64,000 bases of DNA from an uncultured Chloroflexota bacterium (GTDB lineage Bacteria > Chloroflexota > Dehalococcoidia > CAUJGQ01): positions 2,071 through 66,070 of the forward strand of contig CALFMN010000154.1 in NCBI GenBank assembly GCA_937879875.1, read 5' to 3'. Position numbers and translations under genes: made by a program. Positions 23,248 through 27,888 of this stretch are shown piece by piece. The notes beneath the pieces were generated by a model. The model saw only the letters and a list, made by a program, of their open reading frames with translations. It did no database searches and was not told the origin of the DNA. The stretch's first letter is position 1; each line of letters starts with the position of its first letter.

Positions 23248-23521
23248 TCACGTCACTCCTCTGCGTGGCCTATTCGCCACACCTTGAGCAACGAGTGCCG
23301 GCGCGAGCTCCTGCAGGGGCGTTCGGTAACGAACGAGGAACAGCCGCGTTGCGAGCCGGTCTCCGCGCCATGGCGCATCGGCGCGGAAGGAGGCTGTTCG
23401 GACACATGCGGTGGCGCGGTGGCGGACGCAGCCGCCCACGAGCGGCCGCGTAATTCGCTACACTGACGGCGAACTGCCGCCTCACGGAATGAGCGGCACC
23501 CGACGCACAGGGTCCGCCGCT

Positions 23522-23671
23522 ATGGCCGAGCTGCCGACCGGGACGATCACCTTCCTCTTCACGGACGTGGAGGGCAGCACCCGCCTGGGGGAAGCCTATC
23601 CCCAGGCGATGCGGGCCGTGATGGCCCGCCACGACGCGCTGCTGACGTACCGGAGAGCCGATGCCTGCTGA
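23522..23671 (+). pseudogene. Truncated class III adenylate/guanylate cyclase fragment
   Basis: MAELPTGTITFLFTDVEGSTRLGEAYPQAMRAVMARHDALL is the canonical CYC-domain start. A stop follows after 49 aa, immediately before the vsr-dcm-RE island. Confidence 0.55.
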
Positions 23672-23753
23672 CGGTGAATCTGCCGGCCGCACGCGCCAAC
23701 CGTGGAGTGCCCTTCCACCGTTCGAAGTGCCGTCGGCCACGCGTAGCCGCAAC

Positions 23754-24134
23754 ATGGCGTCGATTCGGGCGGCTGATACGGAACCCGAAGTCTATGTGCG
23801 CCGCGTGCTGCATGCCGGCGGATTCCGCTTCAGGCTGCGTCCACGGTCGCTGCCGGGACGACCGGATCTGGTCTTGCCCCGGTATCGGCTCGCGGTCTTT
23901 GTGCATGGCTGCTTTTGGCACCGCCATGACTGCACCAACGTCAGGGTTCCGCGGACGAACACGGCCTACTGGCGGGCGAAACTTGATGCAAATGCCGATC
24001 GGGATCGGCGCAACGAAGCTTTGCTCGCGCAAGCGGGTTGGGCTGTTCGCATCGTTTGGCAATGCAGGCTGGCCGCGGACACAGCGACTCTGCTGGCCGA
24101 CCTTCGCGTCTTGCGCGAGCGTACGCGGACATAA
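23754..24134 (+). CDS. vsr: Very-short-patch-repair endonuclease
   Basis: FVHGCFWHRH and VPRTNTAYWRAKLDANADRDRRN motifs are present. Confidence 0.85.
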   Translation: MASIRAADTEPEVYVRRVLHAGGFRFRLRPRSLPGRPDLVLPRYRLAVFVHGCFWHRHDCTNVRVPRTNTAYWRAKLDANADRDRRNEALLAQAGWAVRIVWQCRLAADTATLLADLRVLRERTRT

Positions 24135-24176
24135 GGGCCTTGCGCCCCCGCCGCAGGTGCTCGATAGTCTGACAGT

Positions 24177-25196
24177 ATGGAACAGATGAGCTATGTCGAG
24201 AGAATCAACGCCGGCCTGGAGCCGAATCCTCGAACTGAAAGCGTCGTCGTCGATCTGTTCGCCGGTTGCGGTGGCCTGGCCCTCGGGTTTGAGGCGCAGG
24301 GATACGCGACACATGGCTTCGAAATGGACGAGGACTGCTGCGAGACCTACCGGCGGAACCTCAGTGGCCAGTGTTCGCAGGTCTACTTGACCCCTGAAAC
24401 TGAATTGCCGCCGGCCAATGTCGTGATCGGCGGCCCGCCATGTCAGCCATTCAGCGTTGGCGGCAATCAGCTTGGCCGGAGAGATGATCGCGACGGCTTC
24501 CCGACGTTCATCTCGGCTGTCAAACGGCTGAAGCCGGACATCTGGCTGTTTGAAAATGTGCGCGGGATGTTTTACCGCAATCGGAGCTACATGGAACAAG
24601 TCACAGACAGCCTCCGCGGCCTGGGGTATATCGTTGATGCGCGCCTCCTGAACGCCGTGGACTACGGCGTGCCGCAGAACCGGGAGCGGCTGGTAGTTGT
24701 GGGCCATCGCGGCGGCTTTCGGTTTCCTCAGCCGCTAACCCGGCGATTCACCGCGGGTGAGGCGCTGGGGGAATCTGCGTTCGCATGTCCTCCAAATGCG
24801 AAGATCCTGACCGAGAGCATGGATGCGTACGTCGCCCGCTATGAGCGGGCCTCCAAATGCGTCCGCCCGCGAGATCTCCATCTTAATCGGCCGGCCCGTA
24901 CGCTCACGTGCCGCAATCTTGCCGGCGCTACCGGCGACATGCAGCGTGTCCGGCTGCCCGATGGGCGTCGCCGGCGCTTGCTCGTGCGCGAAGCGGCCCG
25001 TTTACAAAGCTTTCCAGACTGGTTCGCGTTCTACGGGTCCGAAGGATCGCAGTTCAATCAGATAGGAAACGCAGTGCCTCCGATGTTCGCGTTCGCGTTA
25101 GCCGCAGCTGTGCGGTCGTATCTGGACGGTATGGGCGAAGCGGCTGAGGTTCCGGCCGAGATGCTAGCCGGCCCGCGGCAACCCTCCCTCTTCTGA
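24177..25196 (+). CDS. dcm: DNA (cytosine-5)-methyltransferase
   Basis: Motif I DLFAGCGG, motif IV GGPPCQPFS, ENV, and QNRERL are present. Local GC is lower than the flanks. Confidence 0.9.
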   Translation: MEQMSYVERINAGLEPNPRTESVVVDLFAGCGGLALGFEAQGYATHGFEMDEDCCETYRRNLSGQCSQVYLTPETELPPANVVIGGPPCQPFSVGGNQLGRRDDRDGFPTFISAVKRLKPDIWLFENVRGMFYRNRSYMEQVTDSLRGLGYIVDARLLNAVDYGVPQNRERLVVVGHRGGFRFPQPLTRRFTAGEALGESAFACPPNAKILTESMDAYVARYERASKCVRPRDLHLNRPARTLTCRNLAGATGDMQRVRLPDGRRRRLLVREAARLQSFPDWFAFYGSEGSQFNQIGNAVPPMFAFALAAAVRSYLDGMGEAAEVPAEMLAGPRQPSLF

Positions 25197-25264
25197 ATTC
25201 GAATCTTGGTGAGGCAGCTTGCTTCCGGATCTAATGGCTGGCGGACAGCGGCGACGGCGGCTCG

Positions 25265-26215
25265 ATGAGCAAGGTGGACGACGCCAGGGATATCCTGCGA
25301 CAACTCGGTTTCGCCGGGGCACAGCAGAGCACGATGTGCGCTCTGACTCTCTTGGCACTTGCTGGCTTGGACGAGTCGACAGCCTGGTCGAGCGCGTCTG
25401 CGCCGCGGCTGGGTATTGCTGGGCCGGATGGAATCATGGCCTTTGTCCGGGACCGGCTTGGTCACCCTTATGCGATGAACACCAGGGAAAGCTTCCGAAA
25501 GCAGGCGTTGCATTACTTCGTGCTTGCTGGAATCGCGCTGCGTAACCCGGACAATCCGGAGCTTGCGACAAATGACCGGCGGAATCACTATGCGCTTCGC
25601 GCTGAAACGGTTACGCTGCTGCAACACTACGGATCCGAGTCATGGCCGGAGCAGTTACGGCGGTTTCAGACAATGCGGCCTGCCTTGACCGACCGCTCGC
25701 GAAAGGTCGCCGACAGCTACCGGCTCAGCCTCGCACTTGATAGCGGAGATGTCATTACGCTGGCCCCCGGTCCGCATAACGTGCTTCAAGCCGCGATTGT
25801 TCGCGAGTTTCGGCCTCGATTTGCGGCAGCGGCACGTCTCCTCTACCTTGGCGACGCTGAGAACAAGACGCTTGTTTATCTCCAGTCTGAACTGGAAGGG
25901 CTGGGAATTTCTCTGTCAAGCCATGACAAGCTGCCCGATATCGTGCTGCACGATCCTGGGAATCGAAGGGTCTTCCTCATCGAGGCGGTGTATTCAACTG
26001 GCCCTGTCTCTCCAAAGCGATTCCTCGAATTGGAAGAGGTGTTCGAACAGACGGGTTTGACCCGCGTGTACGTTACAGCCTTCCCGAACTTCACGACATT
26101 CAAGAAGTATGCAACCATCATCGCGTGGGAGACTGAGGTTTGGCTGGCCGAGGCGCCCGACCACTTGATCCACTTCGACGGCGAAAAGTTTCTGCGTTCA
26201 CTCGCTGAGGGATAG
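25265..26215 (+). CDS. Putative type II restriction endonuclease (BsuBI/PstI-like two-domain architecture, tentative)
   Basis: It lies immediately downstream of dcm and shares its reduced GC. C-terminal PDIVLHD...VFLIEAV resembles a PD-(D/E)xK core. The family assignment comes from memory, not from a search. Confidence 0.5.
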   Translation: MSKVDDARDILRQLGFAGAQQSTMCALTLLALAGLDESTAWSSASAPRLGIAGPDGIMAFVRDRLGHPYAMNTRESFRKQALHYFVLAGIALRNPDNPELATNDRRNHYALRAETVTLLQHYGSESWPEQLRRFQTMRPALTDRSRKVADSYRLSLALDSGDVITLAPGPHNVLQAAIVREFRPRFAAAARLLYLGDAENKTLVYLQSELEGLGISLSSHDKLPDIVLHDPGNRRVFLIEAVYSTGPVSPKRFLELEEVFEQTGLTRVYVTAFPNFTTFKKYATIIAWETEVWLAEAPDHLIHFDGEKFLRSLAEG

Positions 26216-26409
26216 CGCCTCGCCAGTATGGACTACGGCCGCTGCGGAGCGCTGAGATCTGCGCTTGGTTGGTCTGCGGCTATACGCCGGTTTGACCATG
26301 CCCGCGCGGCTTTCTACAGTGGCGAAGATACGGACATAAGACAGCAGAGATTCGACGGTGCGCCGGGCCGTGTGCCGGCTTCGCGCGTCGCTCAGGAGCC
26401 GGCCCTGCC

Positions 26410-27888
26410 ATGACCGCGTTGCGCTTTTCTACCCAGACCTTTGAAACCGCGCCGCTGCACCTGGCGAACACCGACGAGTCGATCGTCAAGGGCGGGCGGC
26501 GACTGTTTTCACGGCTCGCGGACGCCTTTCAGGGCATCCGCCAGATCGGCGTGATCGGCTGGTCCTCGCAGGGGCCGGCACAGGCGCAGAATCTGCGCGA
26601 CTCGCTCGCCGGCTCCGGCATCATCGTCAAGGTCGGGCTGCGCGCCGGATCGGCCTCGATTCCCGCGGCCGAGCGCGCCGGCTTCACCCGCGCCGCCGGC
26701 ACGTTGGGCGAGATGTACGAGGTGATCCGCGAGTCCGATTTGGTGCTGCTGCTGATCGCGGACGCGGCGCAGGCGCAGGAGTATCGGCAGATCTTCGCCG
26801 CGCTGCACCCCGGCGCCACGCTCGGCCTCTCGCACGGCTTTCTGCTCGGCTACCTGAAGAGCATCGGCGCCGCGTTCCCGGCGAACGTCAACGTGATCGG
26901 CGTCTGCCCGAAGGGCATGGGTCCGTCCGTGCGGCGGCTGTACGAGCAGGGCGCGGACGTCGACGGCGCCGGCATCAACTCCAGCTTCGCCGTCGAGCAG
27001 GATGTGACCGGCCACGCGACGGACTACGCGCTGGGCTGGTCCGTCGCGCTCGGCTCACCCTTCACCTTTCAGACGACGCTCGAGTCGGAGTACAAGTCGG
27101 ACATCTTCGGCGAGCGCGGCATCCTGCTCGGCGCGGTGCACGGCATTGTCGAGGTGCTGTATCGCTGGTACGTGAACCAGGGGATGTCCAAGGACGACGC
27201 CTTCATCAACTCCGTCGAGGCGATCACCGGGCCGATCAGCAAGCTGATCTCGCACCACGGCATCCTCGCCGTGTACGAATCGTTCAACACCGAGGAGAAA
27301 GAGACGTTCCGCCGGGCCTACTCGGCCGCCTATCACCCGGCGTTCGAGATGCTGATGGAGATCTACGACGAGGTTTCGTCGGGCAACGAGATCCGCAGCG
27401 TGGTGATGGCGAACCAGCGCTTCGGCCGCTATCCGATGGGCAAGATCGACGGCACGGAGATGTGGCGAATCGGCGAGGGCGTGCGGGCGCGGCGCGGCAG
27501 CTTCAGCACGCCGATTCCACCGGTCACGGCCGGCGTCTACATCGCCACGATGATGGCGCAGGTCGATCTGCTCAAGGAGAAGGGCCACCCCTACTCGGAG
27601 ATCGCCAACGAGTCGATCATCGAGGCGGTCGACTCGCTGAATCCGTATATGCACTTCAAGGGCGTGGCCTACATGGTGGACAACTGCTCCACCACGGCGC
27701 GGCTGGGTGCGCGCAAATGGGCACCGCGCTTCGACTACATCCTGATGCAGCTCGCGCTGCCGAAGCTGGACCGCGGCGATCCGGCCGACCCCGAGCTGCT
27801 CCGCGCCTTCGAGACGAACGACATCCACCAGGCGCTGGCGAAGTGCTCCGAGCTGCGCCCGCCGGTGGACATCGCCATCCTCGGGTAG
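26410..27888 (+). CDS. ilvC: Ketol-acid reductoisomerase, class II (long form)
   Basis: The protein is 492 aa. The N-terminal Rossmann motif is [20 protein letters not shown], and it has a duplicated knotted C-terminal domain. Confidence 0.88.

Follow-up and report, generated by a model that had tools for sequence, protein, structure and literature searches.

What is a group of restriction-modification genes with a reduced content of guanine plus cytosine (GC) doing immediately behind the first codons of a cyclase gene? The question is raised by 64,000 nucleotides of DNA from an uncultured bacterium of the Chloroflexota (contig CALFMN010000154.1), and we refer to this whole stretch as the window. 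An earlier note, made from the letters of the sequence, had proposed that the vsr, dcm and restriction endonuclease genes found here form a horizontally acquired island that truncated a cyclase gene. We consider it likely that the DNA from about position 23645 to a point in 26216-26400 represents a Type II restriction-modification (R-M) cassette gained by horizontal transfer, and that this cassette replaces the body of a cyclase gene. The features on which the argument turns are the following.

23386-23521, plus strand: presumed native promoter and 5' leader of the cyclase gene, high in GC (0.70), with a role assigned by inference
23522-23671, plus strand: open reading frame (ORF) of 49 codons whose codons 1-41/42 correspond to the N-terminal part of a class III adenylate/guanylate cyclase domain (homologues; GC at third codon positions)
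23645-23660, plus strand: left junction, containing GGAG at 23652-23655 (sequence; end of cyclase homology)
23661-24134, plus strand: vsr, coding for a T:G mismatch very-short-patch-repair endonuclease of 157 amino acids (PF03852, TIGR00632)
24177-25196, plus strand: dcm, coding for a C5-cytosine DNA methyltransferase of 339 amino acids, or 336 from 24186 (PF00145, TIGR00675)
25265-26215, plus strand: full-length gene for a BsuBI/PstI/SdaI-family restriction endonuclease (Type II) with 316 amino acids (PF17728 and PF06616)
26216-26409, no strand assigned: non-coding right flank, with the right boundary of the island somewhere inside it (GC, periodicity)

Composition and gene content of the cassette

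The reduced GC content that had first drawn attention to the three genes is real, at 0.608 for 23754-26215 versus 0.684 for the whole 64 kb window. Just 0.24% of 2462-bp windows are this low, the lowest of them being 23901-26362, and the GC profile drops from about 0.70 to 0.54-0.65 over roughly 23700-26400. When codon usage was compared with that of the flanks, as the earlier note had advised, the difference proved to be concentrated at third codon positions (GC3). The three genes have GC3 values of 0.66-0.71 (vsr, 0.685; dcm, 0.706; endonuclease, 0.659), whereas those of five flanking genes are 0.85-0.93. The island is compositionally foreign by both measures, in agreement with horizontal acquisition. 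The cassette is 2.6-2.75 kb long, and its three genes lie on one strand, are separated by small gaps and share the atypical composition. Elsewhere in the window, the second-lowest-GC stretch (42751-45212; 0.634) coincides with an amino-acid permease gene on the minus strand (42657-44225), and its low GC probably reflects the composition of a membrane protein and not another island.

The pairing of Vsr with a C5 methyltransferase was recognized at the outset, and profile matches now bear out both family assignments. The vsr product matches PF03852 (7.6e-30, 103 bits; cutoff 27) and TIGR00632 (142.6 bits; cutoff 97.85), aligns with E. coli Vsr (1cw0; E = 3.4e-33), and retains the LPGRPD motif with its catalytic Asp as well as the HGCFWHxHxC and WxC motifs of the His/Cys zinc site. 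Its start must be moved, because the methionine at 23754 from which the gene had been read is internal and belongs to a conserved TRSRNM motif, and the true ATG is at 23661, 93 nt earlier. The N-terminal extension gained in this way, PWSALPPFEVPSATRSRNM, is conserved in the Vsr of a related cassette described below (L094; RWKELPPFETPSAARSRNM), which is 55.9% identical over 145 aligned residues.

The methyltransferase matches PF00145 (2e-56, 192.2 bits; cutoff 22) and TIGR00675 (167.2 bits; cutoff 100.65), and its best matches in the PDB are M.HaeIII and M.HhaI. All canonical C5 motifs are present: I (DLFAGCGG), IV (GGPPCQPFS, with the catalytic Cys), VI (ENV), VIII (QNRER) and X (GNAVPP). Its homologues begin where this gene has its second ATG (24186), a position from which translation may start here as well. 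Hundreds of homologues exist at 64-73% identity, and many of them are cyanobacterial.

For the endonuclease, the earlier family assignment had been tentative and is now firm. Both domains of the BsuBI/PstI/SdaI family are present, namely the N-terminal helix-turn-helix (HTH) domain (PF17728; 2e-36, 125.3 bits) and the catalytic domain (PF06616; 2e-50, 170.4 bits), each with a cutoff of 27, and residues 3-310 align with residues 13-318 of SdaI (2ixs; E = 5e-60). The family signatures P224-D225...E240-x-V242 and IAWETEVW are kept, and in an alignment of 23 sequences that includes this protein, P224, D225, E240, V242, W288, T290, D299 and H300 are invariant. In its N-terminal domain, several positions that are nearly invariant in the family differ from the consensus. 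PADLOC labels the three island proteins Vsr, MTase_II and REase_II, the last with a match of 2.9e-93. In the public annotation of the source contig (L001, ERZ27245795:k141_81735, 69.8 kb, with a sequence identical to the window), vsr is missing altogether and the endonuclease begins at an internal methionine, 57 codons short (259 instead of 316 amino acids; 25265-25435 is left out). An automated survey would consequently list the locus as a methylase with a truncated endonuclease.

Separate and adjacent genes for modification and restriction are a Type II arrangement, and the way in which this type of methylase repeatedly accompanies PstI-family endonucleases, described below, suggests that the two enzymes have matching specificities. 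In such a system the C5 methyltransferase would mark host copies of a short palindromic site with 5-methylcytosine (5mC), and the PD-(D/E)XK endonuclease of the PstI/SdaI family would cut unmarked copies of this site in incoming DNA. Vsr would nick 5' of the T in the T:G mismatches that arise within the methylase site when 5mC is deaminated, and its predicted role in repairing them would limit the mutational cost of the 5mC system.

The cyclase remnant and the left junction

The ORF at 23522-23671 contains TFLFTDVEGSTRL and is 60-88% identical to the N-termini of class III cyclases over residues 1-41/42 only. An exhaustive search gave this same extent of homology in essentially all of the 150 matches listed, and codons 42/43-49 lack homology and end in a stop that overlaps vsr. 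When longer or full-length homologues are used with tblastx and tblastn, cyclase homology ends at 23644-23647. A complete class III catalytic domain comprises about 180 amino acids (PF00211) and is not contained in these 49 codons, which are a remnant and not a cyclase; a Pfam scan of the ORF yields no match because the fragment is too short. The proposal that a class III cyclase start ends prematurely at this place is thereby confirmed, with identities of up to 88% that stop at codon 41-42. The GC3 of the ORF is 0.90, which is host-like, and the fragment therefore lies compositionally on the host side.

Full-length homologues of the remnant are about 830-1030 amino acids long, and the four that were scanned (900-1026 amino acids) combine Guanylate_cyc with NB-ARC/AAA_22/AAA_16 (STAND) and TPR domains. 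A cyclase-AAA-LuxR protein had been suspected, and the cyclase and STAND/AAA parts of this guess hold for the homologues, but TPR takes the place of LuxR, and no LuxR domain was seen. None of eleven full-length homologues revealed a further cyclase remnant in the window, tblastx and tblastn with partial and full-length homologues gave nothing of the cyclase gene beyond 23647, and there is no paralogue of the fragment elsewhere in the window. Because no other piece of the cyclase remains, we favor replacement (by substitution, or by insertion plus deletion) over a plain insertion. The earlier idea that an insertion truncated the cyclase is thus right as to truncation, but a simple insertion does not fit, since some 800-1000 codons are gone without a trace downstream. 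A cassette of similar length stands in place of this missing body.

Two kinds of match could be mistaken for additional cyclase material. One is a large STAND-like regulator gene on the minus strand (33090-36332; 1080 amino acids, called as 1011), which codes for AAA_16 and a C-terminal LuxR/GerE HTH. The P-loop region of its product resembles that of the cyclase-STAND-TPR homologues, and the resulting matches, the only others that these searches gave, were considered as the missing part of the cyclase and rejected, as this is a separate gene on the minus strand without a cyclase domain. The other kind consists of short database proteins that correspond to a cyclase N-terminus, which might have indicated a recurrent phenomenon; the two that we inspected are frameshift or contig-end fragments. 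Many database proteins of 40-90 amino acids that correspond to the cyclase N-terminus are such contig-end or frameshift pieces (L089, 5001-7676; L090, 5001-6169); Contig_47748, for example, has many split genes. Short cyclase-like ORFs in databases are therefore not to be read as a family.

The geometry of the left junction is tight. Only 14-17 nt separate the end of cyclase homology from the vsr ATG, the stop codon of the remnant (23669-23671) overlaps vsr by 11 nt, and the Shine-Dalgarno-like GGAG is located 5 nt ahead of this ATG. Foreign DNA upstream of vsr amounts to about 16 nt at most, which is too short for a promoter and leaves 23386-23521 as the one candidate stretch for a promoter ahead of vsr. 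Given this geometry, vsr is probably transcribed from the captured cyclase promoter. Under this arrangement, vsr and possibly the whole operon would be expressed from the captured region, and the 49-codon remnant would act as an upstream ORF that may be translationally coupled to vsr.

We also looked for relatives that preserve the locus without the cassette. The ketol-acid reductoisomerase encoded immediately to the right of the island shares 77-83% identity with its counterparts in metagenome-assembled genomes (MAGs) of Dehalococcoidia and Tepidiformaceae, which points to a host within the Chloroflexota that is Dehalococcoidia-like. Among 80 loci on genome contigs scanned with this enzyme (best protein identity 82-83%), none has an empty site or shares the upstream genes. 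A scan of metagenome contigs that used the neighboring membrane protein turned up a single syntenic relative, L082, which is 81.5% identical at the nucleotide level over 19703-23386 and then diverges completely, with no cyclase, island or reductoisomerase at the corresponding position. Comparison with relatives had been recommended as a way to find the uninterrupted cyclase, and it did not produce one, as this sole syntenic relative diverges upstream of the fragment. As the synteny break at 23386 precedes the cyclase fragment, L082 does not reveal what the locus originally looked like.

Related cassettes, target specificity and alternative readings

Although the endonuclease clearly belongs to its family, a search of 5.8 billion proteins found best homologues that are only about 50% identical. 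We inspected four contigs carrying the closest of these (49-50% identity), and in three the endonuclease gene is directly downstream of an N6_Mtase/Eco57I-type methylase gene, while the fourth homologue lies where its contig breaks off. Loci of this endonuclease family on viral contigs (n = 62) show the same preference, with an N6-type methylase in 52, none detectable in nine and a C5 methylase in one. Relatives in a plasmid collection are 41-43% identical and annotated as BsuBI/PstI, and the one locus inspected there has an N-6 methylase; no close homologue of the window methylase is present in this collection. A PstI-type N6-adenine methyltransferase, typical but not defining for the family, is thus not the neighbor of the window endonuclease, which instead adjoins a C5 methylase. 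Homologues of this methylase occur in the following settings.

L094 (Logan SRR23683178): methylase 68% identical; Vsr present; BsuBI/PstI-family endonuclease
L093 (Chloroflexota MAG GCA_050695655.1): methylase 67% identical; Vsr present; BsuBI/PstI-family endonuclease
L146 (IMG/VR): methylase 57% identical; Vsr not detected; BsuBI/PstI-family endonuclease
L157 (Trichodesmium): methylase 66% identical; Vsr not detected; N-terminal endonuclease fragment of 97 amino acids with an abutting DDE_3 transposase gene
L091 (Calothrix PCC 7507): solitary methylase, 70% identical; no Vsr; no endonuclease

The cassettes of L094 and L093, both uncharacterized, provide the same three functions as the window, with Vsr proteins 45-56% and methylases 67-68% identical to those encoded here. 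Gene order and orientation in L094 are as in the window, and in L093 vsr is divergently oriented. Both cassettes have less GC than the DNA around them (0.619 versus 0.673 in L093; 0.569 versus 0.634 in L094). The resemblance does not extend to the endonucleases, since those of L093, L094 and L146 are only 22-36% identical to the window enzyme (31-36% for L094 and L146; 22-27% for L093), and there is no cyclase fragment at these loci. A neighbor-joining tree places the window endonuclease among the N6-paired enzymes, with L094/L146 and L093 on separate deep branches. Because an endonuclease from the N6-paired branch is combined here with a C5 methylase-Vsr module, the cassette looks like a product of module exchange, as the tree and the partner patterns together suggest. 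On Trichodesmium MAG contigs (L157 and L159; about 3257-4894 in L157), the methylase gene is followed by a 97-amino-acid BsuBI_PstI_RE_N fragment and a DDE_3 transposase gene. L157 gives the impression of an R-M system in decay, on its way to becoming a solitary methylase, and such decay may lie behind many solitary cyanobacterial homologues, including that of Calothrix PCC 7507.

Comparison with better-known systems reveals partial likenesses. The enzymes PstI and BsuBI share both Pfam domains with the window endonuclease, which is 41-50% identical to many members of their group and falls with them in the tree, but their systems have an N6_Mtase/Eco57I-type adenine methylase upstream of the endonuclease and no Vsr, whereas the window has a C5 methylase. 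SdaI from Streptomyces diastaticus (2ixs; CCTGCAGG) likewise joins an N-terminal winged-helix domain to a C-terminal PD-(D/E)XK domain with the PD...E-x-V signature, but it is only 37% identical, and the partner in the window is a C5 methylase with Vsr. E. coli Dcm-Vsr also links a C5 methylase to Vsr, and the catalytic and zinc-binding residues of Vsr are conserved between the two systems. E. coli Dcm, however, is solitary, lacks an endonuclease and recognizes CCWGG, while the window methylase is distant from it (NF007772, 44 bits versus a cutoff of 710) and has vsr upstream.

Which sequence might the cassette recognize? CTGCAG is the site of BsuBI and PstI, and CCTGCAGG that of SdaI; to our knowledge, all characterized members of the family recognize one of these two sites, and cleavage typical of the family leaves 3' overhangs. 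Cytosine methylation within its site blocks PstI. When C5 methylases differ in target, their recognition regions, which lie between motifs VIII and IX, normally cannot be aligned. The target-recognition region of the window methylase (residues 186-262) is 55-74% identical to those of methylases beside PstI-family endonucleases and is conserved like the catalytic core. Since this region is conserved to such an extent and the partner enzymes belong to one family, a single methylase specificity is suggested. One methylase type serves three endonuclease lineages, and the window enzyme is nearest the PstI-like branch with its adenine methylases, making CTGCAG the most economical target, which would be protected here by 5mC in place of N6-methyladenine. 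We therefore lean toward CTGCAG, or a sequence containing it, as the putative site, on the strength of family membership and partner patterns.

A possible precedent is AplI, a CTGCAG Type II system of the cyanobacterium Arthrospira platensis NIES-39 (PMC5741684). Its genes (NIES39_K04650/NIES39_K04640) may be related to those of the window. In work by Shiraishi and Tabuse from 2013, the AplI methylase is reportedly a cytosine-5 enzyme, and no Vsr is known in that system. No Arthrospira member appears in the cluster-member names, which are uninformative on specificity, and cyanobacterial methylome papers contain no mention of CTGCAG.

Several observations weigh against the account given so far. 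The proposed target follows solely from the family of the enzymes and the partners they have elsewhere, and the endonuclease is 37% identical to SdaI and about 50% identical to its nearest relatives, which are uncharacterized. Site counts in the window do not help: CTGCAG occurs 27 times versus 30.5 expected from dinucleotide shuffles, which is no clear avoidance, and although it is under-represented relative to a Markov expectation of 44.7 (z = -4.5), four palindromes are more depleted. CCTGCAGG is not depleted relative to dinucleotide shuffles of the window. We consequently discarded site avoidance as a guide to specificity, as the Markov test detects only a general avoidance of palindromes. 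Captured transcription of vsr is argued from junction geometry alone, and a simple consensus scan found no sigma-70-like site in 23386-23521. Among the genome and metagenome contigs scanned, no relative has the cyclase intact or the site empty. Convincing direct or inverted repeats do not flank the island, no tRNA or Rfam family marks it, and no integrase or transposase gene is among its neighbors. Many mobile R-M units have been catalogued by Furuta et al. (PMC2853133), and the absence of flanking repeats, tRNA and mobility genes sets the window island apart from them. Finally, the source is a contig of a short-read metagenome assembly.

The palindromes that are scarcer than CTGCAG form an observation in their own right. 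In the whole window, CAGCTG (8 versus 37), CTCGAG (6 versus 36), GCGCGC (102 versus 156) and GAGCTC (9 versus 23.5) fall well below the maximal-order Markov expectation, which suggests that this lineage has been exposed, in the past or at present, to R-M systems of other specificities.

Some of these points would be expected if the locus had a different history. The cyclase fragment could be foreign to this place, either because it arrived with the cassette from a high-GC host or because everything from 23386 rightwards is a larger variable segment, and in both cases no cyclase was disrupted here. Synteny with L082 indeed ends at 23386, upstream of the fragment and not at the island junction, and more distant relatives carry, ahead of the reductoisomerase, genes unrelated to those of the window. 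We regard this history as rather unlikely, because the host-like GC3 of the fragment is unlike that of the cassette, the homologous cassettes L093 and L094 lack such a fragment, and L082, at 81.5% DNA identity, is distant enough to have undergone unrelated rearrangements. Far less probable still is that the junctions are an assembly artefact produced by a chimeric join at a conserved cyclase motif. The source is a MEGAHIT-style metagenome contig (k141_81735) and the left junction directly follows a highly conserved protein motif, but the 2.7 kb cassette is bordered by host-like DNA on both sides and would require two independent chimeric joins, and a chimera would need a 141-mer repeat where the conserved stretch spans only about 120 nt. 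The same proteins occur on contigs in three archives, although these are not necessarily independent assemblies.

Other doubts concern function. The island might hold two unrelated units, a solitary Dcm-Vsr pair serving regulation or repair and an endonuclease that is inactive or guarded by a methylase encoded elsewhere, for example an N6-adenine enzyme. Pairing of the closest endonuclease relatives with N6-adenine methylases, the occurrence of solitary methylase homologues in cyanobacteria such as Calothrix PCC 7507, and the fact that our analysis covers one contig of the genome all leave some room for this idea. We nonetheless judge it improbable, given that at least four other loci (L093, L094, L146 and L157) have this type of methylase as the immediate neighbor of a PstI-family endonuclease, that the endonuclease ORF is complete and has lost none of the family-invariant residues, that the three genes are closely spaced on one strand with a common atypical composition, and that the cyanobacterial copy in L157 appears to have decayed from a paired system. 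A more serious contender, though one to which we give clearly less weight than to CTGCAG, is a genuine system with another target, such as the 8-bp SdaI site CCTGCAGG or an unrelated palindrome, with specificity set by the divergent N-terminal winged-helix domain. This would agree with the low identity to any characterized enzyme (37% to SdaI), the departures of the N-terminal domain from the family consensus, the sharing of one methylase type by three very divergent endonuclease lineages, and the lack of CTGCAG-specific avoidance in the window. However, the characterized family members of which we are aware all recognize CTGCAG or CCTGCAGG, and a common family target most simply explains why one conserved methylase recognition region spans the three lineages. 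An R-M cassette directed at CTGCAG or a sequence containing it thus remains our preferred interpretation.

Surrounding genes and wider meaning

To the right of the endonuclease gene, GC climbs from about 0.60 to 0.68 across 26216-26409, and there is no codon periodicity. A 61-codon ORF (26228-26413) lacks codon-position periodicity as well and is probably not a gene. Neither tblastx nor tblastn detects cyclase-family homology in this flank, and its translations contain nothing recognizable. Before the start of the reductoisomerase gene, 26292-26320 weakly resembles a promoter, but this match is no better than chance. The reductoisomerase itself (26410-27888) is of the long form, with 492 amino acids, and its score of 209.5 bits is below the TIGR00465 cutoff of 226.15 and below all NCBIfam equivalog cutoffs. 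Its gene is not preceded by ilvB/ilvN in the window, whereas an ilvN-like ACT-domain gene is directly upstream of it in at least one relative (L007).

On the other side of the island, a 48-codon ORF on the minus strand (23105-23251) is called in the public annotation and belongs to no Pfam family. Its product has a signal-peptide-like N-terminus and a C-terminal ...NSWCAGC, and could represent a small peptide, secreted or Cys-containing. The ORF is conserved in L082 (81% over 47 amino acids), whose synteny with the window ends in the upstream region of this ORF, at 23386.

Every component of the island is from a well-known family, and the same three-gene combination is present in other uncultured genomes. 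What the locus offers is mostly a clean example, and not a discovery, of a compact R-M cassette that replaces a host signaling gene without a recognizable mobility gene or flanking repeats. For annotation, it matters that public calls at this locus wholly miss vsr and shorten the endonuclease. For the family, the locus suggests that PstI-family endonucleases and methylase-Vsr modules reshuffle in nature. If the proposed CTGCAG/5mC specificity is true, this cassette would represent a second, Vsr-equipped means of protecting the PstI site, and also a high-GC source of enzymes. A bolder scenario, which we put forward tentatively and with the odds against it, is that a natural methylase swap took place in a PstI-family system, in which a C5 methylase-Vsr module taken from distant systems of this family came to guard an endonuclease of the N6-paired lineage, and that the resulting cassette, with no promoter of its own ahead of vsr, uses the captured cyclase promoter via the coupled 49-codon ORF. 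If the methylase swap proves true, a single recognition site would be interchangeably protected by N6-methyladenine (m6A) or 5-methylcytosine (m5C).

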